Positions 31,227-54,755 of a stretch of 64,000 nt of DNA are shown one piece after another; the stretch's first letter is position 1; every line of letters begins with the position of its first letter. The notes below the pieces were generated by a model. It did not search any database and was not told the origin of the DNA. It worked only from the letters and a program-made list of their open reading frames with translations. The stretch covers positions 992,001 through 1,056,000 of the forward strand of contig OZ244034.1 in assembly GCA_965215185.1 (NCBI GenBank). Direction: 5' to 3'. The position numbers and the translations under genes are program-made. The stretch is from Acidimicrobiia bacterium. GTDB lineage: Bacteria; Actinomycetota; Acidimicrobiia; Spongiisociales; ZC4RG35.

Positions 31227-31229
31227 ACA

Positions 31230-32240: not shown

Positions 32241-32254
32241 CAGATGATCAGGAC

Positions 32255-33423: not shown

Positions 33424-33906
33424 CTAGTCAGGGTTGTTGACTAGGTGGGTGGCGGCGTTGTCGAAGTGCTCAAACATGAGAGCCCGGATCTCAGCGGGCA
33501 GCGGTCGGCCGGTGCCGTCGGCGAGGATAGCTTCGTCGAGTGAGGCTGTCATGTTTGCCATCCATGCGTCGCGTTCGGCCCAACCGATGGTGAAGGGCTG
33601 GTGGCGCATCCCAAGACGCGGGTGGCCTCGCACCTCGCTGTAACGGGGCGGGCCGCCCCAGTACTGGGCCAAGAAGCCAGCCAGTCGCGTCTTGGAGGGC
33701 CGCAGGTCCCTCGGATACATGGGCCGCAGCAGCGGGTCGCCCTCCACGGCCTCGTAGAAACGATTGACAAGATCGTCGAAAAAGCTCTGGCCTCCCACCG
33801 CCTCGTACACAGTAGGAGGCGCCTTCATCGCCTCTCGCAAAGACCCGCGCAGGGTCACCCCCGCCGGGTGACTCTCTTCGCCATCCATACTGTCAGACTC
33901 ACTCAC
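33424..33906 (-). CDS. Group II truncated hemoglobin (GlbO-like)
   Basis: VYEAVGG, FY..DPLLRPMYP, FLAQYWGGP..YSEVRGHPRLGMRH, ERDAW; the true start may be later. Confidence 0.92.
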   Translation of the reverse strand: MSESDSMDGEESHPAGVTLRGSLREAMKAPPTVYEAVGGQSFFDDLVNRFYEAVEGDPLLRPMYPRDLRPSKTRLAGFLAQYWGGPPRYSEVRGHPRLGMRHQPFTIGWAERDAWMANMTASLDEAILADGTGRPLPAEIRALMFEHFDNAATHLVNNPD

Positions 33907-33957
33907 GACGCTCAGCCTATAAGACTGTTCCCTGTATTGATCACCTCTTAGGCATGT

Positions 33958-34200
33958 CCGGTGTCCTTCCCACAGAGGTGGGTTCCAGGTTCGGTGATAG
34001 GTGGTTGGTGTTGTAGTGAACTGTGGTGACTGTAGGTGCGGAGGAACCTGGTGAGGGTTCTGGAGGCGTTGTGGTTGGGTAGGGCGTTTGTGGGCGCATC
34101 CTTGGAGGAGGGTTTAGCGGAAGCATTCATTTTCCCGTTCGTTTGGGGCGGTGGGGTCTGATCAGTTTGTGGGTGGCGCCGATCTTTGTGCAGTCGTTCT
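33958..34200 (-). mobile_element. Degenerate 3' end of an IS481-family transposase
   Basis: Pieces in several frames: LIRPHRPKRTGK, AHKRP, FLRTYSHHSSLQHQPPI, HLCGKDT, resembling the IS481 C-terminus (RPYRPQTNGK...YNHHRPH...PPIS..NNLCG). Confidence 0.6.
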
Positions 34201-34391
34201 CACGGGGGCTTCCTTTGATCTCGACGGAATGTGTTATCCCCCGAATCGAACCCGGGAGGTCCTCAACAACCAAGCACCCTGTCAACCACATCTATGGAAA
34301 ATATACCTAAAAAAGGAACAGCCGCGGGGCTTCTCAATCAAGCATAATGTTATACTAATTGCGAAGAATTCGGACAGAGAAAGGAACTCAA

Positions 34392-35639
34392 ATGCGGATC
34401 AAGAGAGGACGACTTGTCCCCCGGATAGCGGTGCTGGCTACATTGGCGTTGATAATTGCTGCCTGCGGGGACGACGCAACTACCGCGCCTGTGGCAACCA
34501 CCGCTGCTACTACTGCAGCGCCGGTACAGACTACCACTACTACCGCTGCACCCGTAGAAACTACCGCCGCGCCGGTGGAGACCACGGTTGCAAGTGAAGA
34601 TCCCGGGGTTGCTGAGGCCAAGGCCATCGTGGAGGCTCTCACCGCCGCGCCTTCCTTTGAGTTCGGCGGCCCGCCCATCGAGGTGGGGGACCAATTGCAG
34701 GGCAAACGGATCTATGCGATTGGCAATGGGCTGGAGTTCTTTTTCGTGAAGAACTGGCTCGCTGGCGTCGAGGAAGCTGCCGGGGAACTCGGAATGGAAG
34801 TGACCGCCGTTGATGCTGGCGTAAACGACCCGGTCGGGCTGATTGATCAGGCCGTGGCCCAAGCCTACGACGTAATTCTCATCCAGAGCGTCGACTCCGG
34901 TACGGTGGCGGCGCCTCTCGCAGACGCCAGGGATGCTGGGATCCCGACCATTGAGCTCACGACATCGGATGGACACCTGCCTACTGCTGAGGAAGCCGCA
35001 CGCGGAGTGTTCGGATACGTGTCTTTTTGCTATTCGTGTGCGGGCGCACAAATGGCCGCCTTCATTGTTGCCGATAGCGAAGGAACCGGTACCGGTGTTA
35101 TCTACACAGTGCCAGGTCTGGTGGTGAGTGAAGCTATGGTGACGGCTTTTCAGGCAGAGATGAATCGGCTTTGCTCGGATTGTGGCACCGCTGTCGTAGA
35201 AGCGCCCTTCGCCCAGTGGGGTGACCTGCAGGGTCTCACCGGTACTGCGATCGAAACCTACCTCGACGACGGGCCACTCTATCTCGTTGCGGTGTTCGAC
35301 GCGATGGTCCCCATCGGAGTGGCGGCCACCATTGCAGAGAAAGGTGTTGAGGATCAGGTAAAGATCGTTACCTACAACGGCACCGATGCAGGACTGTCCG
35401 GCGTTGCAGACGGCACCGTCGCCGCCGACATAGGTGGACCTCAGTCGTGGCTGGGATGGGCAACCGTAGATCAGGTTGCCAGGGCCCTGTTGGGCGAGGA
35501 TCCAGCCGCTGATGAGATGCTCCCACATCGGATCTTCTCTGCTGACAACATTGGCGATGTCGACCTGGGTGGCCCCGAATCCGAGTGGTATGGCGGAACT
35601 GATTTCCGAGCTGCCTACCGGGCCCTCTGGGGTATGTAG
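34392..35639 (+). CDS. Sugar ABC transporter substrate-binding lipoprotein (RbsB-like fold)
   Basis: IAAC lipobox, Thr-rich linker, EEAAGELGMEV, DQAVAQAYDVILI, ARDAGIP. Confidence 0.87.
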   Translation: MRIKRGRLVPRIAVLATLALIIAACGDDATTAPVATTAATTAAPVQTTTTTAAPVETTAAPVETTVASEDPGVAEAKAIVEALTAAPSFEFGGPPIEVGDQLQGKRIYAIGNGLEFFFVKNWLAGVEEAAGELGMEVTAVDAGVNDPVGLIDQAVAQAYDVILIQSVDSGTVAAPLADARDAGIPTIELTTSDGHLPTAEEAARGVFGYVSFCYSCAGAQMAAFIVADSEGTGTGVIYTVPGLVVSEAMVTAFQAEMNRLCSDCGTAVVEAPFAQWGDLQGLTGTAIETYLDDGPLYLVAVFDAMVPIGVAATIAEKGVEDQVKIVTYNGTDAGLSGVADGTVAADIGGPQSWLGWATVDQVARALLGEDPAADEMLPHRIFSADNIGDVDLGGPESEWYGGTDFRAAYRALWGM

Positions 35640-35682
35640 TTTGGCTAAGGTAAAAAGCGTGGCCTGAGTCGATAGGAGGGTA

Positions 35683-37221
35683 ATGACAGACAGCCTGCCA
35701 CCGATCCTTGAGGCAAGGGGATTTGGCAAGACGTTCGGTGGCAGGACTGTCCTTCGGGATGCCGAAATGACCATCCATCCCGGCGAAATCCGAGGACTGG
35801 TGGGACAGAACGGTTCGGGAAAGTCCACATTCATCAAGATCCTCTCGGGTTATCATGGCCCCGATGACGGGGCCACCCTCGCAGTAAGGGGACGGCGCGT
35901 AGAGTTCCCCATTTCCCCCGACGAGCCAGCTCGACTGGGCATCAGCTTCGTTCACCAGGATCTGGGCCTCTTCGAGGCAGGGACGGTTCTTGAGAACCTC
36001 TTGGTCGGTCGTTACCAGACACGACCTGCATGGCGGATCTCCTGGCGGCACGAGACTCGCCGAACCCGTCAGTTGTTGGAGCCGTTTGGACTCGATGTCG
36101 ATCCTGCAACCCCGCTGACCAAGCTCACTGAAGTGGAGCGAGCCATCATTGCCATTGCCCGGGCGATGTCCGGGCTTGATTCAAACGGCGGACTATTGGT
36201 TCTCGACGAAGCGACGTCCCGGTTTCCCCGCGACACCGCCTACGCCTTTTTTGACGCGGTGCGGGATGTTGCCGCACGGGGTATGGGAGTGCTCTTCGTT
36301 AGCCATCGCTCCGAGGAGGTGCTGGCACTGACCGACACCATTACAGTGTTCCGTGATGGGGTTGTCGTTGCTGACCGTCCCACTACAGATTTTGACGAGC
36401 AAAACCTGGTCAAAGCCATCCTCGGGTTTTCCCTGGAGAATTTCTACCCCGAGCCCCATCACACGACTCAGGATTTGGTGTTAACGGTCACCGACCTCAC
36501 CGGTCCTATGGTCGACGGGTTCTCCGCTAGCGTCCACCACGGGGAGATCCTGGGTCTCACTGGCCTACTTGGTATGGGCCACGATCTAGTGCCACATCTC
36601 ATATTCGGGTCGATAGTTGCTACCGGCGGCGCCATCGAGATCGGCGGCGCGGTGTACTCGGCGGTCGGGATGACTCCCCGCCGTGCTATGGATGTTGGTT
36701 TGGCGCTGCTGCCCTCGAACCGGCTGCGGGAGGGCGGCGTGGCTGGAGCCTCCGTCGCCGAGAACGTGACACTGGCGATCCTTGACCGATTCCACGTAAG
36801 GGGTTTGTTACGGCGCCGGCGAGAAGAACAGACCGCAGAGCGTATGATGGCCGATTTCAAGGTGGAGCCCGTTGCTGCCGGGCTGCCCCTGGGCACCTTC
36901 AGTGGAGGGAACCAACAAAAGAGCCTTGTCGCCAAGTGGTTCGCTACCCAACCCCGCCTTTTGCTACTCGACGAACCCACCCACGGCGTGGACGTGGGCT
37001 CGAAGAAGCAGATCTTCAAACATCTCAGAGACAGCGCTGAGAGTGGCACGGGTATCGTTATTGCGTCAGTCGAAGCAGAGGATCTTGCCCAGGTCTGTGA
37101 TCGTGTCCTTGTCTTCCGCGACGGTCGGGTAGTGTCTGAGCTTACGGGTTCCAGACTTACTGCGGCAAGGATCCGGCAGCAGGCTCTGATCGGGAATGCC
37201 ACAGCCGCGACGACCTTGTGA
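35683..37221 (+). CDS. Sugar ABC ATPase, two-domain (RbsA/MglA-like)
   Basis: GQNGSGKST, LVLDEAT, VSHR, FSGGNQQK, LLDEPTHGVDVG. Confidence 0.93.
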   Translation: MTDSLPPILEARGFGKTFGGRTVLRDAEMTIHPGEIRGLVGQNGSGKSTFIKILSGYHGPDDGATLAVRGRRVEFPISPDEPARLGISFVHQDLGLFEAGTVLENLLVGRYQTRPAWRISWRHETRRTRQLLEPFGLDVDPATPLTKLTEVERAIIAIARAMSGLDSNGGLLVLDEATSRFPRDTAYAFFDAVRDVAARGMGVLFVSHRSEEVLALTDTITVFRDGVVVADRPTTDFDEQNLVKAILGFSLENFYPEPHHTTQDLVLTVTDLTGPMVDGFSASVHHGEILGLTGLLGMGHDLVPHLIFGSIVATGGAIEIGGAVYSAVGMTPRRAMDVGLALLPSNRLREGGVAGASVAENVTLAILDRFHVRGLLRRRREEQTAERMMADFKVEPVAAGLPLGTFSGGNQQKSLVAKWFATQPRLLLLDEPTHGVDVGSKKQIFKHLRDSAESGTGIVIASVEAEDLAQVCDRVLVFRDGRVVSELTGSRLTAARIRQQALIGNATAATTL

Positions 37222-37237
37222 CACAGGAAGGGTATTG

Positions 37238-38227
37238 ATGGCTGCTTTCCGGGAGACTCCGCCGAAAAACCATCTTGAGTCGCGTGTCCCGGTCTACTTG
37301 AACCGCTATGCGCTTCTAATGGCCTGGATATTGATCATCATCATCTTCGGCATTCTCCAACCTGAATTGTTTCTGCGTCCCCGTAACTTCCTAACCATTT
37401 TCAGCGAACGCTCGATCCTATTGATTCTTACTCTCGGAATGCTGCCGGGTCTGGCCGCCGGTGAGTATGACCTGTCTGCCGCTTCCACGATGGGATTGTC
37501 GTTTGTGGTCCTGGGCTGGCTCAATGTTATCCATGGATGGCCGGTGGCGCCCGCCATTGTCTTGGCTCTCCTTGCGGCTCTTGTCGTAGGAATTATCAAT
37601 GCTCTGGTGATCGTGGTGCTTGATGTTCCCTCGATTGTCGCCACCCTCGGCATGGCCACGTTGCTGGCGGGTACTGCTCTCGGTATCAACAACCTCATTG
37701 TCTCTGGCATTTCGCCGGGTCTTGTCAGTTTCGCCCGAACCAAGGTATTCGGCCTCCAGTTGGTGTTCTTTTACGCTCTGGCCCTTACCTTTGTCCTTTG
37801 GTACGTTTTTGCTTACACACCCTTGGGCCGGTATATCTATTTTGTCGGCGCTGGACGTGATGTGGCGCGTCTCACCGGGATCAGAGTGAACGCGATCCGA
37901 GCCGGAAGCTTGATCGCCGGTTCGGTGATCGCTGGATTGGCCGGTGTGCTCCTGGCAGGACGCAACGGATCGGTTGACCCCAACTTCGCCCCGGGTCTGC
38001 TGCTTCCCGCTTTCGCTGGCGCATTCTTGGGATCTACCACCGTCACGCCAGGCCGCTTCAATGCCTGGGGGACATTCATCGCTGTTTATTTCCTGGTAAC
38101 TGGTATCAATGGTTTGCAGTTGATGAAGATCACCGGGTGGGTGGAGCAAGTTTTCTTCGGGGCTGCCCTCGTCATCGGTGTTGTGTTCTCTCAACTCGCG
38201 GGTCGACGTAGGGTAATGGGGGCGTGA
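37238..38227 (+). CDS. Sugar ABC permease (RbsC-like)
   Basis: GEYDLS, PSIVATLG, TPLGRYIYFVG, ARLTGI, FLGST..G. Confidence 0.92.
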   Translation: MAAFRETPPKNHLESRVPVYLNRYALLMAWILIIIIFGILQPELFLRPRNFLTIFSERSILLILTLGMLPGLAAGEYDLSAASTMGLSFVVLGWLNVIHGWPVAPAIVLALLAALVVGIINALVIVVLDVPSIVATLGMATLLAGTALGINNLIVSGISPGLVSFARTKVFGLQLVFFYALALTFVLWYVFAYTPLGRYIYFVGAGRDVARLTGIRVNAIRAGSLIAGSVIAGLAGVLLAGRNGSVDPNFAPGLLLPAFAGAFLGSTTVTPGRFNAWGTFIAVYFLVTGINGLQLMKITGWVEQVFFGAALVIGVVFSQLAGRRRVMGA

Positions 38228-38394
38228 TGGGTGGGGTTTCGGTGCCCGAACAGACGAATCGGACGCCGGGATCGGCCGAGTCCGACAACATCCCGTGGCG
38301 CGGGACCCGCGGTTAAGACACGGCGGCGCTCTTCTTTACGGCGAAGTTGGCATGGTGTTGACTAGCTCAAAGCGGGCGCCCTCGTCGGTCTGCA

Positions 38395-39612
38395 ATGATT
38401 GCCAAAGGAGGAAACCTGATGCGACGGATCACCGACCCTGCCTCCGAACGGATCCTGGTGGGAGTCATGTGCGGCACTTCCGGAGACGGAATCAGCGTTG
38501 GCATCGTCGGCACTAAGGGTGGCGGGCGGAACCGCCAGGTCAGGGTGCTTCGACATGAAGTCATTCCGTATCCGGCCAAGGCGCGGGAGCAACTCTTTCG
38601 ACTCTTTCCCCCGCAGCGATTCTCTGCCAGCGAACTAGCCGTAACGCACCGCCTCTTCGGTCAACTCATCGGCGATGCCGTTGTGGCCGTCACCTCCCGA
38701 GCCGGTTTTGAGTCCGGCGATATCACCGCGGTGGTCTCCCAGGCGCCAACCCTAATTCACACACCGCCCAAAGGGGGAGAGGACGGTATTCACATCGAGA
38801 TCGGGGAACCCGCGGTGATAGCCGAGATAGTTGGTGTCCCAGTGGTTGCCGACCTCCGCCCAAGCGACGTTGCCGCCGGGGGTCACGGCGCTCCGCTCAG
38901 CGCTTACGCCGACTGGGTATTGTTTGCCCACCCTGTCCGCAGCCGGGCCGTCCAGAACATCGGTGGGATCGCAAATGTCACCTTTCTTCCGCCCGATCCG
39001 GGGCTCGAAGACGTTGTGGCCTTCGACACCGGGCCGGGGAACATGGTGATTGATGCGGTAGTGCAGGCGCTCAGCGGGGGAAAGAAAGCATATGACGAAC
39101 GGGGCGCTTGGGCATCTCGAGGCGCAGTGCATCGGGGTTTGATCGAGTGGATGATGCGTCATCCCTATTTGGCCGGTCCTATCCCCAAGACCAGCGGCCG
39201 GGAGGACTTCGGGCAGCCGTTTGCCGACGAGACCTGTTCCGCCGCCGCCGCGATGGGTGTGAGCGACGACGATCTGGTTGCCACAGTTACGGCATTCACC
39301 GTGGAGTGCATCGCTTTGCACTATGCGCGAGATCTGGAGCCTCGGGGCGGTGTTGACGAGGTGGTGCTCTACGGTGGCGGCGTCCACAATGCAACCCTCG
39401 TCGACATGTTGCGCAGCCGGCTTCACCCAACACCGATCCGGTTCCACGACGAGTTCGGCATCTCCGGTGACGCTCGAGAAGCGGTCACCTGGGTGATCCT
39501 TGGCGATGAGACTCTCGCCGGCCGACCCGCCAACGTGCCCGCTGCAAGCGGGGCTCACCACCAGGTGGTACTAGGCAAGATTGTCCGCGCTAAACCCATG
39601 CAGGATCAATGA
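38395..39612 (+). CDS. anmK: Anhydro-N-acetylmuramic acid kinase family protein
   Basis: GVMCGTSGDG, VVADLRPSDVAAGGHGAPL, QNIGGIANVT, FDTGPGN, PKTSGREDFG, GGGVHN, REA. Confidence 0.88.
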   Translation: MIAKGGNLMRRITDPASERILVGVMCGTSGDGISVGIVGTKGGGRNRQVRVLRHEVIPYPAKAREQLFRLFPPQRFSASELAVTHRLFGQLIGDAVVAVTSRAGFESGDITAVVSQAPTLIHTPPKGGEDGIHIEIGEPAVIAEIVGVPVVADLRPSDVAAGGHGAPLSAYADWVLFAHPVRSRAVQNIGGIANVTFLPPDPGLEDVVAFDTGPGNMVIDAVVQALSGGKKAYDERGAWASRGAVHRGLIEWMMRHPYLAGPIPKTSGREDFGQPFADETCSAAAAMGVSDDDLVATVTAFTVECIALHYARDLEPRGGVDEVVLYGGGVHNATLVDMLRSRLHPTPIRFHDEFGISGDAREAVTWVILGDETLAGRPANVPAASGAHHQVVLGKIVRAKPMQDQ

Positions 39613-40298
39613 CGATCCTGATCGTGGGAGCCCATGCCATGGATGCCGAGATCATGTCCGGCGCGTTCGCTTTGAAGGCAGCTCGGGATGGTCATCGGGT
39701 GGTGCTGTTTCATCTCAGCAGGGGTGAACGCGGCCACCCCACCACCCCGCCCGCCCGGTTTGGTCGACAACTTGAGGTTGAGATGGCCGAGGCGGCTACC
39801 GCCCTGGGTGTCGAGCAACAGTGGAGCGGGCTGCGGGCACCCCTCCCGCACCCGGATGAGGTAGCTACTGTTGTCGCCGCAAAAGTCGACAGCCTCAGAC
39901 CCGCCCTAGTGGTCACCCACTGGAAAGGATCGTGGCATCCCAGCCATCGCCGCTCCCATGATGCGACCGTAGCGGCGCTGGAGCTAACCGGTGGCGGGAT
40001 TCCGCTGGTGTACGCCGAGAATTGTGAAGACCTCAACGGGTTCCGGGTCGACTTATTCGTGCCCATCGACGAAGAGTACGAATCCTGGCTGGCGGCCCTC
40101 CGGTGCTATGAGTTGTTCCGCCGATCGGAACCAAGATCGAAGGATCCCAGCGCCATTCCCTACTGGGCCTATTACACTGCGGCGGCTCGCGTGAGGGGCC
40201 TGCAAGCCAACCTCGACCTGGCGGCGGCTTTCATGCAAGGGTTCGGACCGGCGCCCCCCTCTGGGATGGGCTTTCAACAGTGCCCGCCGACGGGCTAG
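39609..40298 (+). CDS. PIG-L/LmbE family N-deacetylase
   Basis: VGAHAMDAEI, LSRGERG, VVTHWKGSWHPSH. Confidence 0.85.
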   Translation: MTILIVGAHAMDAEIMSGAFALKAARDGHRVVLFHLSRGERGHPTTPPARFGRQLEVEMAEAATALGVEQQWSGLRAPLPHPDEVATVVAAKVDSLRPALVVTHWKGSWHPSHRRSHDATVAALELTGGGIPLVYAENCEDLNGFRVDLFVPIDEEYESWLAALRCYELFRRSEPRSKDPSAIPYWAYYTAAARVRGLQANLDLAAAFMQGFGPAPPSGMGFQQCPPTG

Positions 40299-42355
40299 AA
40301 GCGCCGTAGGATCAGGCTACCTACCCGATCAGGCTCCGCGGCCCAACCCGGTGCGATGACAGTGGTCGAGTCCAACTGCTCCACTATTGCCGGGCCTGCA
40401 ATCCGGTCGCCGCGTCTCAGGTCATCTCGGTTGTACACCGGGGTCTGGACCCATCCTCCACTGTCTCCGAAGAACACCTCCCGGTTTGAATGTGGCGCAG
40501 CTTTTTCACCTGCGGGAAGTTCGGGGAGCTCCGGACGATCCAGTCGGCCGATGCCTGCCACCCGCAGGTTTACGATCTCGATTGGTTCCTCTATGTCGGG
40601 GGCATGCCCATACTCCGCTTGGTGCATTTCCCCGAACAGAAGAGGCACCTCCTCGTGCATGTCCTCTCCGTAGGGGCCCGGTAGCTGCACATTGAGTTCG
40701 TGAGTCTGTCCGACATACCTCAGGTCCATCCCGTATACAACCTTCACGCGCTGGGACTCCATCCCCTCGGCAGCCAGAAGGTTCCGGGCCCGCCCGGCCA
40801 GCACCTCGTATCCTGCGGCCACATCGTCGGGTGTGACCTCATTTCTTGCCCTGAGGAAGGTAGTCACGAAGTCATGTCGTATGTCGGTGAGCAGTAGACC
40901 CAGAGCGGAGGTCACCCCCGGGTTGGGTGGAATCAGCACGGTCGTGATGCCCATTTCGTCGGCGACTTCAGTGGCGTGTAGAGGCCCGGCGCCGCCGTAT
41001 CCGACCATGACGAACTCTCGCGGATCCCGTCCGCGCTCTACCGTTCTCTGCCGTATGGAAAACACAATGTTTGAGACGGCCAGACGCCGGATCCCGTCGG
41101 CCATCGCCACGACCTCAAGGCCCAACGGGTCGGCCACGGTTGCCACGGCGCGGTGAGCTGCATCCGCTGAGAGCGAAATAGCTCCCTGCAGCAGATAGCC
41201 GGGGTTGAGACGACGAAGAACAACGTTGGCGTCGGTCAGAGTTGGTTCGATGCCGCCGCGCTCAATGCATGCCGGTCCTGGATCGGCTCCGGCGCTTTGC
41301 GGACCCATATGGAGCATGCCACCGGAATCAAGCCATGCGATCGTGCCGCCGCCTGCCCCGATGGAATCGATCTCGATCACCGGGTACGACACGGGAGTTC
41401 CGAATTCCAATTCGAAGTCGCTACGGAGATAAGGGTTACCGTTGTGCACCAGGGAAATGTCGGTGCTTGTCCCGCCGATGTCCATTCCGATGATGTTGGT
41501 CATTGACGCCTTCGAGCCGCCGGTGATGGGCGCTGGTTCGGCGTCGGACGCCAAGCCCAGCGCCAACTGCGCCAACACTCCGGCGGCCGGACCGGACCCG
41601 ATGGTGTAGGCCGGGCGTTGGAGGGCGGCGGCAGCAGTCGCCAGACCCCCGTTTGAGAGCATCAACAGCAGGTCGTAGCTGTAACCCTGAGCTCCAAGCG
41701 CCGACTCCAGGCGTTCGAGGTACTTGCTGAGGACCGGTCCGATATACCCGCTGACCACAGTGGTGGACGTGCGCTCGAATTCACGCCACTCCGGCAGAAT
41801 GTCGGAGGACAAGTAAATCGGCAAGCCTGGAAGAGCCTTGGTAATCGCAGACCGTACCGCACGTTCGTTCTCGCCGTTGAGATATGAGTTGATGAAGCAT
41901 ATTGCCAGCGAGCTAACACCTTCCTCGACGAGAGCCCGCGCCTCTGCTACTGCTGTTTCCAGGTCAGGGGTGCGGGTCACCTCTCCGAAGGCGTTGGTTC
42001 GTTCCGGAACCTCCCGGCGCCAACGGCGTAGCACCAGTTCTGGTGGCGGATCCCATTGAAAGTCATAGAGGGCGCCCCTGGTTGTGCGGCGTATCTGGAG
42101 CACATCCCGAAATCCCTGGGTAGTCAACAGACCAGTCGGCGCGCCACCCCGCATGATGACAGCATTGGTGGTAACGGTGGTCCCATGGGCGAATTGCCGG
42201 ACATCATCCATCGATACGCCTGTTTCCGCTACGGCTGCCAGCACAGCTCGCGAGGAATCGGAGGGCGTGGAAAGAACCTTGTGAACGGTCAGCTCTCCAT
42301 TGGACAGCAGTACGAGGTCAGTGAAGGTACCACCGACATCGACGCCGATTCTCAT
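40295..42355 (-). CDS. ATP-dependent hydantoinase/5-oxoprolinase, subunit A (HyuA-like)
   Basis: IGVDVGGTFTD, HGTTVTTN, EFERTST, SGPAAG, DIGGTSTD, GAGGG, SAGADPGP, YGGAGPLH. Confidence 0.93.
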   Translation of the reverse strand: MRIGVDVGGTFTDLVLLSNGELTVHKVLSTPSDSSRAVLAAVAETGVSMDDVRQFAHGTTVTTNAVIMRGGAPTGLLTTQGFRDVLQIRRTTRGALYDFQWDPPPELVLRRWRREVPERTNAFGEVTRTPDLETAVAEARALVEEGVSSLAICFINSYLNGENERAVRSAITKALPGLPIYLSSDILPEWREFERTSTTVVSGYIGPVLSKYLERLESALGAQGYSYDLLLMLSNGGLATAAAALQRPAYTIGSGPAAGVLAQLALGLASDAEPAPITGGSKASMTNIIGMDIGGTSTDISLVHNGNPYLRSDFELEFGTPVSYPVIEIDSIGAGGGTIAWLDSGGMLHMGPQSAGADPGPACIERGGIEPTLTDANVVLRRLNPGYLLQGAISLSADAAHRAVATVADPLGLEVVAMADGIRRLAVSNIVFSIRQRTVERGRDPREFVMVGYGGAGPLHATEVADEMGITTVLIPPNPGVTSALGLLLTDIRHDFVTTFLRARNEVTPDDVAAGYEVLAGRARNLLAAEGMESQRVKVVYGMDLRYVGQTHELNVQLPGPYGEDMHEEVPLLFGEMHQAEYGHAPDIEEPIEIVNLRVAGIGRLDRPELPELPAGEKAAPHSNREVFFGDSGGWVQTPVYNRDDLRRGDRIAGPAIVEQLDSTTVIAPGWAAEPDRVGSLILRRF

Positions 42356-44082
42356 TTGGTCTCTTTATTCTTCATTGATGTTCTGAGATGTTCGGTCAGC
42401 TGGATGGCTACGTCGCCCGTCTCGCTGACTACAACCCCGTATTCCCGGGCGGCGTGCTCGACAGTGACATACCCGTGCCTGACGTCATTGGCCACCAGGG
42501 CCGGATCCCGATTCAGCGGGTCGCCGTACCCGCCTCCTCCGCCGGCGAGAATGGTAACCGTGTCTCCCGCCTGGAGCGGGAACCCAACCGCCTTCAGGGT
42601 GAGGTTTTCTTCTTCGGGTGTGGCGATGTTGCGGATCAATCCATGCTTTGCCCCCGCGCTGCCGCCCAGGACGCCGGGTGGCGGATAGTGCTCTCGGTCG
42701 CCGAGACACGAGAGCCGAACATTGGCATCGACAATGCGGAAGGTTTTACGAGATCCCACCCCTCCCCGATAGCGGCCTGGGCCGCCTGAATCGGGCCAAA
42801 GCGCCCACTCCTCGAAGACAATCGGATAGCGGCGCTCGAACACCTCAACAGGAGTGATTTTTGCGCCGCCTCCATACAACGAGACCAGGCCGGGAGGTCC
42901 ATCCTTGGTGGCCCTCGCTCCGAAGCCGCCCTCGGAATACAGGTAAGCAACGAAGTCGGAATCCTGGTGCTGGCCCCCGATGGTCAGATTGATGAGGTTG
43001 TAGGGGATCCCCACCGCTTGCTCCGGCACAGCTGCGGAGAGGGCTATTAATGCGGCCCCGATCACCTTCTCATACACAGTCGCAGCCATGCTGCTGATCG
43101 CTCTTGGGGGGCGGGCGTTAACTATGGTGCCCTCCGGGGCGGTGATCTGGATTGGCTTGAACACCCCATGGTTCATCGCGATCTCCGGGAAAAGCGACTT
43201 GACGGTCACGTAGACCGCCGACGCGGTGGAGGAGAAGGTGGAGTTTGATGCCGAAAGTGATTCCGGGTCCGATTCTGTGAAGTCGAAGTGCATCGAATCT
43301 CCATCAACTGTTAGCTCTAAGGCAATCTTCTTTGGGAAAGGTCGGTCGAGTGACTCCATGTCAACGAAGTCCTCTCCTTGGTACCGGCCATCGGGAATCC
43401 GGGATATTGCGCTGCGCAGCATCCGCTCTGAATGGGCAATGGCCTCGTCCATCGCCCCGGTAACCTGCTCCCATCCGTATTTGCCTGCGATTTCCTGTAG
43501 TCTCTGCTCCCCGATCCGAGTGGATCCCACCTGAGCCCGCACGTCGCCCAGACGCTCTGACGCGATGCGCATATTGGCTTCGATCACATCAAATACTGCC
43601 AGATTCGGTTCGCCCGCTATATACAACTTCATCGGCGGGAGGCGGAGGCCCTCCTGAAAGTGTTCCCGGGCGTTGGCAACGAAGCTGCCCGGTTCTTGGC
43701 CTCCCACGTCGGCCCAGTGCCCACATACCGCTACGAAAGCCATTAGTTCGCCGCCGCTGAAGACCGGCCGCACCACGCCCACGTCGTTGAAGTGGGTGCC
43801 GCCCACGAATGGGTCGTTCATTATGAACACATCACCGGGGTTGATATTTTCACTGAACCGCTTGAGAATTCCTTGAAGAGAGAACTCAAGCAACGCTACG
43901 AATACCGCCAGGTCCCAGTCACCCTGGGCCACAAGCCGTCCGTGCCGGTCGATGACTGCTCCCCCTATATCGCGTCCCTCGGTGATGACCGGAGAGTAGG
44001 CAGAACGGAAGAGGGCAAGATTCATCTCGTTTACGATGCTCTTGAAGCCGTTGGTGATCACGGGAAGAGTTATTGGATCCAC
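42352..44082 (-). CDS. Hydantoinase B / oxoprolinase subunit B (HyuB-like)
   Basis: GTG start after AAGGAG (VDPITL); SAYSPVI, NDPFVGGTHFND, GHWADVGG, EGLRLPP, DSGGPGRYRGG, GGGGGYGDP. Confidence 0.93.
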   Translation of the reverse strand: MDPITLPVITNGFKSIVNEMNLALFRSAYSPVITEGRDIGGAVIDRHGRLVAQGDWDLAVFVALLEFSLQGILKRFSENINPGDVFIMNDPFVGGTHFNDVGVVRPVFSGGELMAFVAVCGHWADVGGQEPGSFVANAREHFQEGLRLPPMKLYIAGEPNLAVFDVIEANMRIASERLGDVRAQVGSTRIGEQRLQEIAGKYGWEQVTGAMDEAIAHSERMLRSAISRIPDGRYQGEDFVDMESLDRPFPKKIALELTVDGDSMHFDFTESDPESLSASNSTFSSTASAVYVTVKSLFPEIAMNHGVFKPIQITAPEGTIVNARPPRAISSMAATVYEKVIGAALIALSAAVPEQAVGIPYNLINLTIGGQHQDSDFVAYLYSEGGFGARATKDGPPGLVSLYGGGAKITPVEVFERRYPIVFEEWALWPDSGGPGRYRGGVGSRKTFRIVDANVRLSCLGDREHYPPPGVLGGSAGAKHGLIRNIATPEEENLTLKAVGFPLQAGDTVTILAGGGGGYGDPLNRDPALVANDVRHGYVTVEHAAREYGVVVSETGDVAIQLTEHLRTSMKNKETK

Positions 44083-44119
44083 TGGAAGTCTCCTTCCCAC
44101 CTATTGAAAACCCGGAGAA

Positions 44120-44142
44120 TAATGGGGTATAATAGTATATTG
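44120..44142. promoter_or_regulatory. Candidate GntR/HutC-type operator and -10 element in the divergent hyuB/gntR spacer
   Basis: AT-rich gtataatagtatat containing TATAAT; a similar motif (cataatgttatac) lies near 34343 upstream of the sugar-binding protein gene. Confidence 0.35.
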
Positions 44143-44162
44143 TTTCTCTCTCATGGGTTCGA

Positions 44163-44927
44163 ATGGCACGAAATGACAATCTTAAGCTCGGGCCGAAGCG
44201 AGCCAACCGTAGCAAGCCGATCCCACTTTTTCTGCAGGTTGAGCAGAATATGTGTCTGCTTATCGAAACCGGCGAGTGGAGTCCTGGATATCGTCTTCCC
44301 AGTGAGAAGGACCTCGAAGACCTCTACGGGGCCAGCCGAATAACGATTCGGCGAGCACTTAACGACTTAGCCGCCCAAGGCAAGCTCATCCGAGAGCCGG
44401 GTCGGGGAACCTTCGTCCGTGAACCTACCTTGATCGCTGAACCACGTGGGGTTACTTCCTTCACCGAGGAGATGGTCCATCTCGGACTTCGAGCCGGCGC
44501 TCGGGTTCTCTATAGCGGTCTCGAGTCTGCTGATTCGATAACCGCCAGTCGGCTGCGCCTGGAGGAAGACGAACCTGTTGTCGTTATCCACCGGCTCAGA
44601 GTTGCCGATGACAAGCCTTTGGGGATTCAGCGGACTCGGTTACCCGCACAGAGATTTCCCGGACTCCAGGATGCCGATCTGACTGACAGGTCGCTTTATG
44701 AGCATCTTGATGGTGCCTTTGGAGTGACCCCCAGCGAAGCCGACGAGACGTTCCGAGTAGGCAGAGTTGCGGGGGAAGAGGCAAGTTTGTTGGAAGTTGA
44801 GCCAGGAACGTGCGCTTTCTTGGTAGACCGACTCACATTCGACAAAGAGGGTCCATTTGAATTCGTGGAGTCTGTCATGCGTGGCGACCGTTACCGAGTC
44901 CGCCTGGGATTGCGCAGTATCAGCTAA
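44163..44927 (+). CDS. GntR family regulator, HutC/UTRA type (NagR/DasR-like)
   Basis: LPSEKDL, SRITIRRAL, GRGTFV, TSFTEEM, SLYEHL, RGDRY. Confidence 0.93.
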   Translation: MARNDNLKLGPKRANRSKPIPLFLQVEQNMCLLIETGEWSPGYRLPSEKDLEDLYGASRITIRRALNDLAAQGKLIREPGRGTFVREPTLIAEPRGVTSFTEEMVHLGLRAGARVLYSGLESADSITASRLRLEEDEPVVVIHRLRVADDKPLGIQRTRLPAQRFPGLQDADLTDRSLYEHLDGAFGVTPSEADETFRVGRVAGEEASLLEVEPGTCAFLVDRLTFDKEGPFEFVESVMRGDRYRVRLGLRSIS

Positions 44928-44944
44928 ACAAGGAGAAAAAGACA

Positions 44945-45706
44945 GTGAACTCGTTCTTGGAAGCCCTCGGAGGCCTGATCACCAAACTCAAAGACACCCA
45001 GGATGGCCCCATCGACGAAGCCGCTGCCCTGGGGGCCGACGCCATAGCCGGTGAGGGGTGGGTGCATTTTTTCGGAAGTGGCCACTCTGTTATTCCAGTC
45101 CATGAGGCTTTCCCGCGCTATGGCAGCTTTGTGGGGCTGTACCCACTCACGGATCCTCGACTCATGTGGTTCAACGTGCTCGGCCCGGGTGGCGTGCGCG
45201 AACTGCTATGGATGGAACGTGCCGAAGGCTATATCGACAAATACCTCAGCCACCAGCCCCTCGCTCCTGGGGATGTCCTGGTTGTGTTTTCGCACAGCGG
45301 TCGTAACAGCGCACCTGTCGAGGCCGCCATGTATGCCAGGGATCGTGGCCTGTCGGTCGTAGCTGTTACCGCGACCGCCAACCTGGCCCGACCCGCCGGA
45401 CACTCCTCCGGTAAATTCACCGCCGATTTGGCGGATGTGGTCATCGATACAGGCGCCCCGGTCGAGGACGCAGTCGTCACCCTAGCGGGCTGGGGAGTGC
45501 CGTTGGGGGGTGTGTCAACCATCCTGGCCTGCGCAGTAACTGTAGAACTGCTCACACGCATCGCGGCCAAGTTGCTGGATCGAGGGATCACTATGCCTAC
45601 CTTCGTGTCACCGACCGTCCCAGGGGGATCGGTCAAGGGCAACGATGCGGTCTTTGACGCTTTCCGAGAGCGGCTGGACCAAGCCGGTCTTCGGCCTCAG
45701 CGTTGA
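44945..45706 (+). CDS. SIS-domain sugar-phosphate isomerase-like protein
   Basis: FGSGHS, FPRYG, FSHSGRN, HSSGK, DVVIDT. Confidence 0.87.
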   Translation: MNSFLEALGGLITKLKDTQDGPIDEAAALGADAIAGEGWVHFFGSGHSVIPVHEAFPRYGSFVGLYPLTDPRLMWFNVLGPGGVRELLWMERAEGYIDKYLSHQPLAPGDVLVVFSHSGRNSAPVEAAMYARDRGLSVVAVTATANLARPAGHSSGKFTADLADVVIDTGAPVEDAVVTLAGWGVPLGGVSTILACAVTVELLTRIAAKLLDRGITMPTFVSPTVPGGSVKGNDAVFDAFRERLDQAGLRPQR

Positions 45707-45846
45707 TTGGGGGACGGAGTCGGCCAAGGTTGAAGGTGCTGGGTGGGAATCACCAATGAAACCAACTCCCACCAGGATCCCGACATGACTTTTATGTCCC
45801 GTCCCATCCGGCGCTGGACATTTGGGTGGTGTTGTCTTACTTTGCG

Positions 45847-46968
45847 TCAGCGATGGTGGATTTCTTGACCGTCCCGCAGGGTTCGTACCGTGCGAAAGTC
45901 GGCGTCGAGCACCACGACATCGGCGATGCTGAGCGGCACCAAGTCACCGATACCAGGGCGGCCTAGCAGGCGGGCAGGTGTTTCCGTGGCGGCCCGGAGC
46001 GCGGAGACAAACGGTATTCCCAAGTCGATGGTATTGCGTACCGCTTTGTCCATGGTCAATAGGCTGCCTGCCAACGTGCCGTCAGCAAGCTGGGCGCGGG
46101 TGCCGGTGAGGTTTATCCAACGGTCGCCCAACCTGATCCGGCCCCTGCTAGGTCCCCCCGCGGCGCAGATGGCGTCGCTGATCAACGCAATTCGGTGGGG
46201 GGCGACTCGGAAGATCAGTCTCACAATCTCTGGCGCAAGGTGATGGTTGTCCACGATGACAGTCACCGCCGCCCGGTCATCCGTCAAGGCGGCTCCCGGG
46301 ATGCCCGGCGAACGGTGATGAAGGGCGCTCTGGGCGTTGAACAGGTGGGTCACCGCGGTGGCGCCAGCCGCGAAGGCTGCGTGGGCAATATCCGCCGTGG
46401 CGTTGGAATGTCCAATGGCGACCAGTTTTCCGGCTTGGCTGAATACTTTGATTGCCTCCAAGCCGCCAGGAGCCTCCGGCGCTAGGGTTACCCAGCTAAC
46501 CGTTGGATGGGCAGCTAGGGCCGCCACGCGGTCGGGGTCGGGCGCCACTATGTTGGCCGGGTCATGGGCGCCGTGCTTGTCAGGGGAGAGGAAGGGACCT
46601 TCCAGATGGACGCCCACCATCCCGGGGGTGACCTTCAACGCTTCCGTAGCTTTGGCTAGAGCGAGGGAATAGCTGTCCCACGGGAGAGTAATGAAGGTGG
46701 GTTGGAAGGTGGTTACCCCCGTGGCAGCCATTGCTGATCCCGCCTGTTGGTATCCCACCGCATCGGCCTGGGAGAAGTCCACCCCCGCAAAGCCATTTAC
46801 CTGCAGATCGATATACCCTGCCACTGCCAGGTGTCTGCTTCCGTCTGGCGGTAGTCTGACCTCGGTGATCTGCCCATCGGCGATGCTTATGTCACCGCTG
46901 ATTATTTCACCGCCGACCAGCGCCGAATCCACTCCTAGTCGCTGTTTGCTCGCAAGGGGGGTTTGCAT
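45847..46968 (-). CDS. nagA: N-acetylglucosamine-6-phosphate deacetylase
   Basis: GYIDLQVNGFAG, HLEGPFL, GAH, TLAPE, GHS, THLFNAQ, DNHH, ISDA, LAGS. Confidence 0.93.
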   Translation of the reverse strand: MQTPLASKQRLGVDSALVGGEIISGDISIADGQITEVRLPPDGSRHLAVAGYIDLQVNGFAGVDFSQADAVGYQQAGSAMAATGVTTFQPTFITLPWDSYSLALAKATEALKVTPGMVGVHLEGPFLSPDKHGAHDPANIVAPDPDRVAALAAHPTVSWVTLAPEAPGGLEAIKVFSQAGKLVAIGHSNATADIAHAAFAAGATAVTHLFNAQSALHHRSPGIPGAALTDDRAAVTVIVDNHHLAPEIVRLIFRVAPHRIALISDAICAAGGPSRGRIRLGDRWINLTGTRAQLADGTLAGSLLTMDKAVRNTIDLGIPFVSALRAATETPARLLGRPGIGDLVPLSIADVVVLDADFRTVRTLRDGQEIHHR

Positions 46969-46990
46969 GTTTTGAAACCTTACCCTTTCT

Positions 46991-47015
46991 TAGGTGTCCT
47001 TCCCACAGAGGTGGG
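46991..47015. mobile_element. Solo IS481-like terminal sequence
   Basis: ggtgtccttcccacagaggtggg is identical over 23 bp to 33960-33982. Confidence 0.6.
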
Positions 47016-47201
47016 CATCGTTGAGCCCCATTCTGCCCCCAGTCATCAACTCACCAATCAAACCTGTAGAGCTCCCCATTCGGAATGCTTCGAAGTTGGA
47101 AACCTGAGAGGTAGGTCAGAGATTTCTTACACGGCATACAGAGTCGGCTTTTCGGATAGCGGACAGGAGGCAGAGAACCGGCTGCGTTAGAATCGCTCGG
47201 C

Positions 47202-47714
47202 GTGGACCTGCGAAGATACATCCGTGACGTTCCCGATTTCCCGAAAGAGGGCATCCTGTTTCGGGATGTAACGCCACTGCTGGGGGATCCGCCAGCGTTT
47301 CGCTACAGCATTGACCAATTGTGCGTGCACGCGGCTCGACGGGACGCTTCCGTGATCGTGGGCATCGAGGCGCGGGGGTTCCTGTTCGGGGCGGCGATGG
47401 CAGCCCGCATGGAACTGCCGTTCGTGCCGCTGCGAAAACCCGGGAAGCTGCCGGCGGCCCGCTTGTCGGTCGAGTATGCGCTGGAGTATGGCAACAGCCA
47501 ACTCGACATCCACGAGGACGCGCTGTCGGTGGGGAAGCGGACGTATATCGTCGATGATCTGATGGCGACGGGGGGAACGGCGGCCGCGGCCGCGAAGCTG
47601 GTGGAGTTGGCGGGGGGAGAGGTCGTGGGGCTGGGGTTTGTGATCGAGTTGGAGGAGTTGGGTGGGCGGGCGAAGCTTGAAGGCTACGACACTATGAGCA
47701 TTATCCGCTACTAG
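47202..47714 (+). CDS. apt: Adenine phosphoribosyltransferase
   Basis: IRDVPDFPKEGILFRD, GIEARGF, RKPGKLP, YALEYG, IVDDLMATGGT. Confidence 0.96.
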   Translation: MDLRRYIRDVPDFPKEGILFRDVTPLLGDPPAFRYSIDQLCVHAARRDASVIVGIEARGFLFGAAMAARMELPFVPLRKPGKLPAARLSVEYALEYGNSQLDIHEDALSVGKRTYIVDDLMATGGTAAAAAKLVELAGGEVVGLGFVIELEELGGRAKLEGYDTMSIIRY

Positions 47715-47741
47715 GGGCGGCGGTATTTCTTTCCTGTCGGG

Positions 47742-49424
47742 CTAGTTCGCCCGCGCCCTCCTCCGGACTTCGCTGAGCGTGGCGTGCGGGAGCAGCGCCT
47801 CGGGGTCGACCCGCAGATCCAGCACGGCGGGTACGCCAGCGGCGAGTGCCTGCTCGAATGCCGCAGGAAAGTCTTCGGTACGCTCAATCGTTGCGCCGAA
47901 GCCACCGAAGGCCCGGGCGTAGGCGGCGAAGTCGGGGTTGACAAGGTCCGTGCCGCTGGGTCGATCCGGGTAGGTGCGCTCCTGGTGCATTCTGATGGTT
48001 GCGAACATGCCGTTGTTGATCACCAACACGATGATCGCAGCGCCGTACCGCGCCGCCGTGGCCAACTCCTGGGCGGTCATGAGAAAGTCCCCGTCGCCGG
48101 AGAGGGCAACCACCGGAGCATCGGGGCGATAGAGCTTGGCGGCCACCGCGGCCGGCACGGCGTAGCCCATCGCCCCGCTTTGGGGTCCCAACTGGGTCCC
48201 GTACTGCTTGAACCGGTAGTAGCGCTGGAGCCATAGAGCGAAGTTGCCCGCGCCGTTGGTGAATATTGACTCCGGAGGCAGTCGACCGTCCAGGTATTTC
48301 GTCACCTTCCCGAGGTCCAACCCTCCCGGCGCCGGTAGCGGCGACAGCGTCGCTTCGTAGTCGGCGCGTGCCGCCGCAGTCCAGTCCCGCCATGGCGCGG
48401 CGTCGAGGGGCGACATGGTTGAGAGAGCGGCCACCGTCTCCGGAGCCCCTGCGTGGATGCCGAGCGTGGGCCGGTAGACCCGGCCCAACTCGCCTGTGTC
48501 AGGAAGAACATGAACCAGCGTCTGGCGGGGTTGCGGCGGTTCAAGCAACGTGTAGCTACGGGTAGCGGTGTCGCCCAGGCGCGTTCCGATAGCAATGATT
48601 AGGTCGGCGTCGATGATGCGGGCGGCCAAGCTCGTGTCGAGGCCCACGCCGGCGTGACCCACATAGCATGGCGATCGGTTGTCGAGGTAGTCCTGCCGTC
48701 GGAAGGACACCGCCACCGGGAGATTGCTCCGCTCGGCCCACGACGTCAGTGCTGGTCCGCAGTCGGCGTCCCATGTTCCACCGCCGACGATCACCAGCGG
48801 CCGGTTACACCCAGCCAGTAGGGAGCGCAATTCCGCCAGATCCTGTGGGGTCGGCGCTGACCGTTCGGGAGGGGCCGCCACGGGGGAGTCGGGCACCGCA
48901 ACCTCTGCAGCCAGCACGTCCTCGGGCAGCGACACAACCACCGGCCCGGCGCGACCCGCCCGCGCCACCCGGGCGGCCTCGGCAACAACCTCGCTAAGGA
49001 GTTCCGGCCGGTCCACTTCCACTGCCCATTTCGTCAGCGGGGCGAAGAACGCCTCGAAGTTCACTTCCTGGAAGGCACCCCGTCCCCGGTGGGCGGTCGG
49101 GACCTGACCCACGAATAACAGGAGGGGAGTGCCGCTCATATCGGCATTATGTACCGCTACCGAAGCGTGCGCCGCCCCTGGGCCCCGGGTCACGAAAACC
49201 ACCCCCACATCGCCGCGTAACCGGGCGTGCGCTTCGGCCATGATCGCCGCCCCGGATTCGTGGCGGCAGACGACGGTGCGAATCGCCGGTTCGTCGCGCA
49301 GAGCGTCCAACACCGCTAAAAAACTCTCGCCGGGCACTGTGAAGACAGTGTCCACACCGTGGCGGCGGAGTTGATCGACCAGCACCCGCCCGCCGTGACG
49401 CACGGTCGGATCCGAACCCGTCAA
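47742..49424 (-). CDS. Thiamine-diphosphate-dependent enzyme (acetolactate synthase large subunit-like)
   Basis: VPGESFL, RHESGA, TRGPG, GAMGY, GDGDFLM...NN ThDP motif. Confidence 0.9.
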   Translation of the reverse strand: MTGSDPTVRHGGRVLVDQLRRHGVDTVFTVPGESFLAVLDALRDEPAIRTVVCRHESGAAIMAEAHARLRGDVGVVFVTRGPGAAHASVAVHNADMSGTPLLLFVGQVPTAHRGRGAFQEVNFEAFFAPLTKWAVEVDRPELLSEVVAEAARVARAGRAGPVVVSLPEDVLAAEVAVPDSPVAAPPERSAPTPQDLAELRSLLAGCNRPLVIVGGGTWDADCGPALTSWAERSNLPVAVSFRRQDYLDNRSPCYVGHAGVGLDTSLAARIIDADLIIAIGTRLGDTATRSYTLLEPPQPRQTLVHVLPDTGELGRVYRPTLGIHAGAPETVAALSTMSPLDAAPWRDWTAAARADYEATLSPLPAPGGLDLGKVTKYLDGRLPPESIFTNGAGNFALWLQRYYRFKQYGTQLGPQSGAMGYAVPAAVAAKLYRPDAPVVALSGDGDFLMTAQELATAARYGAAIIVLVINNGMFATIRMHQERTYPDRPSGTDLVNPDFAAYARAFGGFGATIERTEDFPAAFEQALAAGVPAVLDLRVDPEALLPHATLSEVRRRARAN

Positions 49425-54663: not shown

Positions 54664-54692
54664 CTAATCCCTCTTTCATCTATTAAAGACGT

Positions 54693-54722: not shown

Positions 54723-54755
54723 AAATGCTATTCGGACAACGCTATCGGGCAACGC

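Follow-up and report, generated by a model that had tools for sequence, protein, structure and literature searches.

Ten adjacent genes at 34392-46968 of a 64,000-nucleotide stretch of an Acidimicrobiia bacterium (contig OZ244034.1, positions 992,001 to 1,056,000; hereafter, the window) form a cluster that is a selected unit, and this is a real observation. The cluster combines a sugar importer and a GntR regulator with an AnmK-family 1,6-anhydro-sugar kinase, PIG-L and NagA-like deacetylases, a SIS-family phosphosugar enzyme, and HyuAB, a two-subunit enzyme of the cyclic amide hydrolase type. That the cluster catabolizes a muramic-type anhydro-sugar is well supported, and we consider it quite probable. 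That HyuAB is functionally part of this catabolism we think likely, and a lactam-opening role for the enzyme is plausible but unproven. The complete account that we favor, with somewhat less than even confidence, is that the cluster is a GntR-controlled, relocatable island, HyuAB included, for the catabolism of a free 1,6-anhydro amino sugar that comes from outside the cell and is muramic in type (3-O-D-lactyl).

A first-pass annotation, made from the sequence alone, had listed these genes, and the Pfam and NCBIfam profile scans from which gene identities are taken here recovered all ten. The features are as follows.

34392..35639, plus strand: substrate-binding lipoprotein of a CUT2 (ribose-type) sugar ATP-binding cassette (ABC) importer (PF13407, Peripla_BP_4, 78.3 bits)
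35683..37221, plus strand: ABC ATPase of the importer, with a duplicated domain (PF00005 in two stretches)
37196..38227, plus strand: permease of the importer (PF02653, 91.4 bits)
38395..39612, plus strand: AnmK-family 1,6-anhydro-sugar kinase (PF03702, 273.9 bits against a cut-off of 24; NF007148, the AnmK equivalog, 396.8 bits against a cut-off of 387)
39609..40298, plus strand: atypical PIG-L/LmbE-family deacetylase (PF02585, 57.2 bits against a cut-off of 28.2)
40295..42355, minus strand: HyuA, ATP-binding subunit of a hydantoinase/oxoprolinase-type cyclic amide hydrolase (PF05378, PF01968, PF19278)
42352..44100, minus strand: HyuB, catalytic subunit (PF02538, 538.4 bits)
44101..44162, no strand: divergent hyuB/gntR control region with the second copy of an AT-rich motif (motif comparison)
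44163..44927, plus strand: GntR regulator of the HutC subfamily (PF00392, 62.8 bits; PF07702, UTRA, 122.3 bits)
44945..45706, plus strand: UPF0309/SIS_2 phosphosugar enzyme, a relative of NagS (NF002805, 247.4 bits against a cut-off of 135)
45847..46968, minus strand: NagA-like N-acetylglucosamine-6-phosphate (GlcNAc-6-P) deacetylase (TIGR00221, 224.8 bits, one bit short of the cut-off of 225.65)

Coding regions overlap by 4 nt at the stop of anmK and the start of the PIG-L gene, which are translationally coupled, at hyuB and hyuA, and where the PIG-L gene and hyuA converge. The divergent hyuB and gntR genes are separated by 62 nt.

The cluster is kept together in relatives. A HyuB pattern was scanned against one genome for each of 185,579 species and found 419 relatives, 80 of which were kept. 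Five of them share 70-85% identity with HyuB (L002 to L006), and the other 75 share 43% or less. The AnmK gene lies beside hyuAB in all five loci with at least 70% HyuB identity, and none of the other 75 carries any further cluster gene. Moreover, a scan of metagenomes with the kinase returned 31 loci, and the whole cluster was present in two of them (77% identity; L108 and L109), which are near-identical to each other and to L002; among the other 29, HyuAB was found in none and a MurQ-type gene lay nearby in 20. The co-occurrence of anmK and hyuAB, which had been proposed as a check, therefore holds in 5/5 genome loci and 2/2 metagenome contigs of the HyuB subfamily. The full order of binding protein, ATPase, permease, AnmK, PIG-L, HyuA/HyuB, GntR, and SIS recurs in L003, L005, and L006, and in L002 the order is kept up to the point where the locus ends. 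Linkage is retained at 60-72% HyuA/HyuB identity, and PIG-L and AnmK identities fall to 46-58% in L005 and L006. L004, L005, and L006 are labeled as Chloroflexota lineages. Four tested flanking genes of the window were absent from all five HyuB loci, and the proteins encoded in the flank of L003 are 83-91% identical to those of a region ~880 kb away in the window genome. Thus, the island sits at different places in close relatives. The claim that these genes form one block stands, as the gene order is repeated, with different flanks, in four other species-level genomes and two metagenome contigs.

What the relatives add to the cluster points to the sugar. We counted six locus types, namely, the window, L003, the L002 group (L002, L108, and L109), L005, L006, and L004. 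Importer, HyuAB, and AnmK are present in all six, a NagA-family gene in three, a 2-hydroxyacid (D-lactate/glycolate) dehydrogenase-like gene in three, and MurQ in two (L004 and L006). In the L002 group, a GlcD-GlcE fusion and a GlcF-like Fe-S protein are inserted between permease and AnmK, and a NagA-like gene and a double-SIS (NagB-II/AgaS-like) gene follow the SIS gene; the position of the NagA-like gene differs among relatives. In L005 and L006, the SIS gene is followed by a gene for a ~995-amino-acid (aa) FAD-oxidase/Fe-S fusion, the architecture of which we take to match that of type II D-lactate dehydrogenases, and in L006 a canonical MurQ-type gene lies between the two. L004 is rearranged, with importer, luciferase-like monooxygenase, hyuB, hyuA, AnmK (40% identity), and canonical MurQ on one strand and with no PIG-L, GntR, or SIS_2 gene. 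The MurQ and D-lactate-dehydrogenase-like genes point to a sugar of the muramic type, bearing a 3-O-lactyl group. L005 keeps the lactate-dehydrogenase-like gene without MurQ, and of all the observations this one hints most strongly at release of the hydroxy acid by the SIS enzyme.

Elsewhere in the phylum, AnmK is usually found with MurQ. In a sample of 401 phylum genomes, AnmK was encoded by 16, including the window genome, and at 13 of the 15 other loci MurQ lies inside the sequence that was fetched (at most 20 kb). The common cluster (L093 and its sisters L094 to L096) pairs GntR with AnmK and has MurQ close by; in L093, which alone among the four was annotated by Pfam, genes for a CUT1 ABC importer and a GHL10-family glycosidase-like protein belong to it as well. 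A distant HyuAB near AnmK-MurQ in L093 was judged a coincidence, as its partner is a DUF917 gene and the sister loci lack it. The nearest outgroup AnmK (L110) adjoins a SpoIID gene. In a kinase tree, the HyuAB-linked AnmKs form one clade with 100/100 support, and the branch of the L004 kinase is long and unsure in its placement. The idea that HyuAB and AnmK became linked independently in L004 was considered and set aside for that reason.

The kinase is the sole AnmK-family match in the 3.12-Mb genome, and 13 further AnmK equivalog models match it below their cut-offs. Its closest solved structure is a fungal levoglucosan kinase (4.9e-70) versus 1.7e-51 and 1.7e-43 for two AnmKs. In AnmK of Pseudomonas aeruginosa, Asp182 is the catalytic general base, Asn187 contacts ATP, and Thr97 and Arg129 make the acetyl and lactyl contacts (PMC10570956). 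The residues aligned to all four are kept here, and the segment FDTGPGN aligns with FDCGPGN of structure 3qbw. Thr97 and Arg129 have equivalents in both AnmK and levoglucosan kinase, however, and do not discriminate between 1,6-anhydro-N-acetylmuramic acid (anhMurNAc) and levoglucosan. The PIG-L family of the deacetylase was also found by a protein atlas comparison, which gave nothing further. The canonical N-terminal metal/base motif of PIG-L/LmbE proteins is His-Pro-Asp-Asp-Glu. The window protein reads AHAMDAE there, the form AHA(M/L)D(A/P)E is kept in five orthologues (window, L003, L108, L005, and L006), and the later HxxH element is present as HPSH. This subfamily is rare (2/401 phylum genomes).

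HyuA and HyuB have complete Pfam domains, and HyuB matches PF02538 over positions 1-519 of the 519 in the model. Among solved structures, HyuA is closest to N-methylhydantoinase (4.4e-132) and the caprolactamase alpha subunit (1.7e-115), and HyuB is closest to N-methylhydantoinase (4.7e-85) and the caprolactamase beta subunit (8e-75). The acetone and acetophenone carboxylases are far more distant (1e-24 to 1e-42 for HyuB). Thus, the first assignment of HyuAB to a lactam-opening family is borne out, in that the enzyme falls in the lactam/hydantoin-hydrolyzing branch and not in the carboxylase branch. Hydrolases of this branch are its best NCBIfam matches as well, although the caprolactamase equivalogs NF050156 and NF050157 gave 531.8 and 300.3 bits against cut-offs of 1,000. 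OplAB hydrolyzes the six-membered delta-valerolactam, and the available text of that report describes such rings as otherwise very stable and OplAB as the only mild hydrolysis reported (PMC11033972). HyuB paralogues lie at 224-227, 364-366, 398-409, 1183-1188, 1211-1213, and 2374-2376 kb of the contig, three of them in tandem at 1183-1188 kb, a striking expansion of ATP-dependent cyclic amide hydrolases/carboxylases for a 3.1-Mb genome.

The SIS protein is a relative of NagS, as its match to the solved SCO4393/NagS indicates (2.5e-32, 115 bits). According to the available text of the NagS report, H53, R64, E94, and D179 are essential, S91 and N228 are catalytically important sugar contacts, orthologues have 58.7% or more identity, and nagS adjoins dmdR1 in Streptomycetaceae; homologues of ~26-36% identity outside that family lack GlcNAc-6-P dehydratase activity (PMC12680351). 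H53, S54, R64, E94, S119, S121, and D179 are conserved in the window protein, which at the positions of S91 and N228 has E (beside alignment gaps) and T, respectively. With these replacements and a HutC-type GntR gene instead of dmdR1 as neighbor, the protein does not qualify as a NagS orthologue. Neither is it MurQ, a possibility that was rejected because the protein matches SIS_2 and NF002805 and not the MurQ profile TIGR00274 (GKRP_SIS_N plus a lid domain). We take it to be a candidate lyase at C2-C3 of a hexosamine 6-phosphate. Closer comparison has thus refined the labels first given to the kinase, the PIG-L protein, and the SIS protein, which now read as nearest in structure to levoglucosan kinase, lacking the usual motif, and UPF0309/NagS-like, respectively.

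UPF0309 homologues occur in 47/401 phylum genomes. The 20 best loci were fetched, and a HutC-type GntR gene lies beside 18 and MurQ is in 2. In the annotated loci, the SIS gene is accompanied by genes for a ROK kinase, a sugar ABC or phosphotransferase system, NagA, and NagB or a double-SIS protein, which argues that the family acts on phosphorylated amino sugars in general. One such module, L147, consists of a ROK kinase, a HutC-type GntR, the UPF0309 SIS protein, a CUT2 ABC importer, and a GFO/IDH/MocA oxidoreductase. About 15 loci like it (L144 to L157, L160, and L161) share the GntR-SIS-ABC core by tblastn, L147 alone being fully annotated, and in one family 14 of the 21 sampled genomes have a UPF0309 match. 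We note that the L147-type module may show what UPF0309 proteins other than NagS do in general.

Regulation appears to join HyuAB to the importer. The true start of the substrate-binding protein is the ATG at 34392 and not the TTG of the longer open reading frame (ORF), and an AT-rich motif lies just upstream.

34343..34355, plus strand: AT-rich motif CATAATGTTATAC, putative operator or promoter, upstream of the importer operon (comparison of GntR-bearing loci)

A second copy, ATAATAGTATA, is at 44129, inside the hyuB-gntR spacer. The sequence CATAATGTTAT(A/G) precedes the importer gene at the same relative place in 5/5 GntR-bearing loci, and the L005 and L006 copies are perfectly palindromic (7+2+7). 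Each hyuB-gntR spacer of these loci has a related ATAAT..(T)ATA element. When degenerate positions are allowed, the motif is matched in all five loci at the importer-upstream site and in the hyuB-gntR spacer and nowhere else; shuffles of the window give a mean of 0.56 matches, and L004, which lacks GntR, gives none. The 12-nt form, searched against the whole genome, matches at these two sites only, and the region upstream of nagA has no AT-rich motif. The regulator has both the GntR helix-turn-helix (HTH) and the UTRA effector domain of the HutC type. The shared motif, with its putative sites, would tie the hyuBA promoter to the importer promoter in an apparent co-regulation. As HyuAB is also invariably present, a cyclic amide seems to be part of the pathway chemistry. 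The binding protein of the importer has a lipobox followed by a Thr/Ala/Pro-rich linker, and its matches to solved binding proteins are distant (best E value, 1.9e-7) and uninformative. The best NCBIfam matches of the ATPase are xylose, arabinose, and ribose ATPases, all below cut-off, and all NCBIfam transporter matches of the importer fall far under their cut-offs.

The rest of the genome was searched for the usual companions of AnmK. The observation that murQ is not in the window extends to the whole 3.12-Mb genome, in which TIGR00274 finds nothing better than 25.3 bits (cut-off, 302), in a frame of 613 aa outside the cluster, and tblastn with the L004 MurQ found no match. The window also has no nagB, as first described, and two NagB-like (Glucosamine_iso) genes lie elsewhere in the genome along with a GlcD/E/F set. 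A genome search gave no SLT-family or Amidase_2 match and no match to a single GH3 query. The genome does encode a single SpoIID-domain protein, and its Mur ligase set is normal. Thus, the organism makes peptidoglycan, yet none of the classic enzymes of muropeptide recycling was seen in it, and import of a free monosaccharide suggests that the cluster serves scavenging rather than muropeptide recycling.

How the island would use a muramic-type sugar can be sketched, and we infer the order of the steps. The lipoprotein-anchored CUT2 ABC system would import the monosaccharide, and the AnmK-family kinase would open the 1,6-anhydro ring while phosphorylating O6. The atypical PIG-L protein would then remove the N-acyl group, the UPF0309 SIS enzyme, with its NagS/MurQ-type acid-base residues, would eliminate the 3-O-lactyl group to give a glucosamine 6-phosphate-type product and D-lactate, and NagA would deal with any GlcNAc-6-P. 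That the SIS enzyme releases lactate as an etherase is close to an even call, leaning slightly against. Muramic delta-lactam, the one stable six-membered cyclic amide to be expected from muramic chemistry, joins N2 and the lactyl carboxylate and requires de-N-acetylation of a peptide-free residue. Once AnmK and PIG-L had acted, amine and lactyl carboxylate would both be free, and muramic delta-lactam 6-phosphate might form inside the cell; alternatively, preformed lactam might be taken up. HyuAB would most likely spend ATP to reopen such a cyclic amide so that the SIS lyase could finish, a role resembling that of 5-oxoprolinase in clearing 5-oxoproline. We regard it as doubtful, though, that the HyuAB substrate is muramic delta-lactam or its 6-phosphate. 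A bolder version, and one that we think rather unlikely, is a MurQ-independent, de-N-acetylating route in which PIG-L is followed by the UPF0309 lyase acting on muramic acid 6-phosphate and HyuAB is the first muramic delta-lactam hydrolase, with lactam formed in the cell or derived from spore-cortex debris. The first-pass annotation had proposed a similar pathway, of which the muramic-type sugar stands on the strength of the MurQ and D-lactate-dehydrogenase-like genes of relatives and muramic delta-lactam as the ring opened by HyuAB is an attractive idea that faces real chemical objections.

A number of observations weigh against the island account or parts of it. By our own stereochemical reasoning, the 1,6-anhydro bridge sets N2 and O3 trans-diaxial and makes an anhydro-lactam implausible, and the cluster has no kinase for a non-anhydro lactam; together, these favor intracellular lactam 6-phosphate over import, if a lactam is the substrate at all. 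L004, which combines HyuAB, AnmK, and MurQ with neither PIG-L nor SIS, would fit poorly with a lactam made only after PIG-L. The PIG-L protein itself seems atypical when judged by the canonical motif, as one residue of the usual Asp-Asp pair is replaced by Met or Leu. SIS enzymes of this kind were found beside canonical MurQ in L006, L158, and L159, and the idea that the SIS protein is a plain MurQ replacement was dropped. All 20 fetched UPF0309 loci lack AnmK, HyuAB, and PIG-L nearby. The genome encodes 10 HyuB paralogues, this one among them. The AT-rich motif was derived from the same sites that it then matches, and it may be merely a set of conserved -10 promoter boxes. Finally, all HyuAB-linked loci may share one ancestor, such that linkage is partly inherited.

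HyuAB might instead be a passenger in an ordinary locus for anhMurNAc and GlcNAc, a general lactam, 5-oxoproline, or hydantoin hydrolase of nitrogen or amino acid metabolism that is kept there by recent shared ancestry. The abundance of HyuB paralogues would fit, as would the next-nearest HyuAB relatives (~40% identity), which lie in an amino acid/lactam context beside a sigma-54 activator, PxpABC, glutamate dehydrogenase, and an aminotransferase. The single clade of HyuAB-linked AnmKs and the DUF917-associated HyuAB of L093, the sole other one near AnmK-MurQ and absent from related loci, are likewise on its side. We nonetheless judge a passenger unlikely. Linkage holds at the identities given above while the flanks change, it survives the rearrangement in L004, in which hyuBA shares a strand with the importer and AnmK-MurQ and is placed between them, the importer and hyuB promoters share a motif, and the scan of 185,579 species returned no copy of the HyuB subfamily without AnmK.

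The sugar, moreover, might not come from peptidoglycan. An anhydro sugar, pyrolytic or otherwise (levoglucosan, 1,6-anhydro-GlcNAc), or a natural product with a sugar-borne hydantoin or lactam ring that HyuAB opens could be the substrate, given that the structure nearest the kinase is that of levoglucosan kinase, that Thr97 and Arg129 are common to both kinase types, and that the binding protein is only distantly related to characterized ones. L004, a more elaborate form of the island, also brings in an FGGY kinase, an S9-type esterase, and BtpA besides its luciferase-like monooxygenase; together with the CUT2 importer, HyuBA, AnmK, and MurQ, these make up an array on one strand (1074-16367) that ends at a DDE transposase. 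Such a substrate seems quite unlikely to us, however, as the MurQ-type and D-lactate-dehydrogenase-like genes of relatives point to a lactyl ether, the NagA and NagB-II-like genes point to a 2-acetamido sugar, and the nearest outgroup kinase adjoins SpoIID. Least probable, in our view, is a NagS-type route, in which a 2,3-unsaturated product arises when the SIS enzyme removes water from an N-acetylhexosamine 6-phosphate, PIG-L or NagA deacetylates that product to the enamine or imine, and HyuAB acts on a downstream carbonyl or cyclic product. The SIS protein is homologous to NagS and keeps its essential residues, the available text of the NagS report has Streptomyces NagA deacetylating the NagS product (PMC12680351), and the co-occurrence of SIS and MurQ in three loci could mean that SIS follows MurQ. 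Yet S91 and N228 are not conserved, the homologues in the ~26-36% identity range were inactive on GlcNAc-6-P, an imine product fits no known HyuAB-family reaction, and HyuAB is nearer to lactamases than to ketone carboxylases.

Parts of the favored island pathway resemble characterized systems. Recycling of anhMurNAc in Escherichia coli proceeds by AnmK, the MurQ etherase, NagA, and NagB, as set out in the available text of PMC13691567. The window likewise has an AnmK-family kinase with the catalytic Asp and a NagA-like deacetylase, with NagB-like genes elsewhere, and island relatives carry MurQ and lactate-dehydrogenase-like genes. The window genome differs in that MurQ was not found, the UPF0309 SIS protein, PIG-L, and HyuAB are added, and uptake is by a CUT2 ABC system. 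The SIS protein shares the UPF0309/SIS_2 family, the essential residues, and the phosphate serines with NagS (SCO4393) but has S91 and N228 replaced and different gene neighbors. HyuAB has the two-subunit architecture and full-length domains of CapAB caprolactamase, OplAB 5-oxoprolinase, and N-methylhydantoinase, but it scores far below the caprolactamase equivalog cut-offs and is embedded in an amino-sugar cluster.

Precedents for the lactam and for deacetylation also exist. Muramic delta-lactam is made in the endospore cortex by CwlD and PdaA. To our knowledge, peptidoglycan chemistry offers no other cyclic amide, and we know of no catabolic enzyme for this one. Agropinic acid, a sugar-linked opine lactam, is catabolized by functions of Ti plasmids with hydantoinase-like genes and no AnmK, which would set a precedent for a HyuAB-type enzyme that opens a lactam on a sugar-derived moiety, although our literature search did not confirm this. 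Moreover, the search returned no paper linking muramic sugars or anhydro-sugar kinases with hydantoinase-family enzymes. As in cortex lactam chemistry, the window cluster pairs a deacetylase with a lactamase-type enzyme; here, however, the deacetylase is a PIG-L protein and not a CE4 enzyme. The available text of PMC10838918 mentions the cortex lactam and describes MdaA of Agrobacterium, an anhMurNAc-specific N-deacetylase of the CE4 family that works in the periplasm on the ends of polymer chains, such that de-N-acetylated anhydro-muramic termini exist in nature. MdaA is thus a precedent for enzymatic deacetylation of anhydro-muramic residues, but the window enzyme is a cytoplasmic PIG-L family member with its gene coupled to that of a kinase.

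Traces of mobile elements flank the island, as listed here.

33960..34314, plus strand: internally deleted insertion sequence (IS) remnant, IS481-type leucine zipper plus HTH transposase (blastn against full genomic copies)
46994..47015, plus strand: solo 22-nt IS end motif of the same element (exact copy, 26 nt upstream of the nagA start)

The remnant lies between a globin gene and the importer gene and has an internal deletion of ~690 bp, and full copies elsewhere in the genome encode an HTH/LZ_Tnp_IS481 protein. The 22-nt end motif has two exact copies in the window versus none expected and four in the genome. The island is thus bracketed by IS ends, with a remnant on one side and a solo end in the same orientation on the other. 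In L006, a tyrosine integrase is found at the cluster edge. An Rfam scan of 33300-47800 gave no match. Further out, the window encodes at 24446-33181 an Opp-type peptide ABC importer followed by an amidohydrolase, an unassigned 336-aa ORF, and an FmdA/AmdA-family amidase, and at 50884-56486 it encodes another Opp-type system, in which permease and ATPase are fused.

Much organic carbon and nitrogen is held in the sugars of peptidoglycan. All routes for N-acetylmuramic acid (MurNAc) known to us go via MurQ or the AmgK/MurU bypass. A 2026 mycobacterial study treats MurNAc routes without MurQ as an open question in its available text (PMC13691567). The island offers a compact, testable gene set of six enzyme genes, a three-gene importer, and one regulator. 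If the island account is true, the widespread non-NagS UPF0309 proteins would gain a physiological role and atypical PIG-L proteins would gain a new job. Ultimately, the ATP-dependent lactamase family would acquire a sugar substrate, and HyuAB may possibly be the missing catabolic enzyme for muramic delta-lactam.

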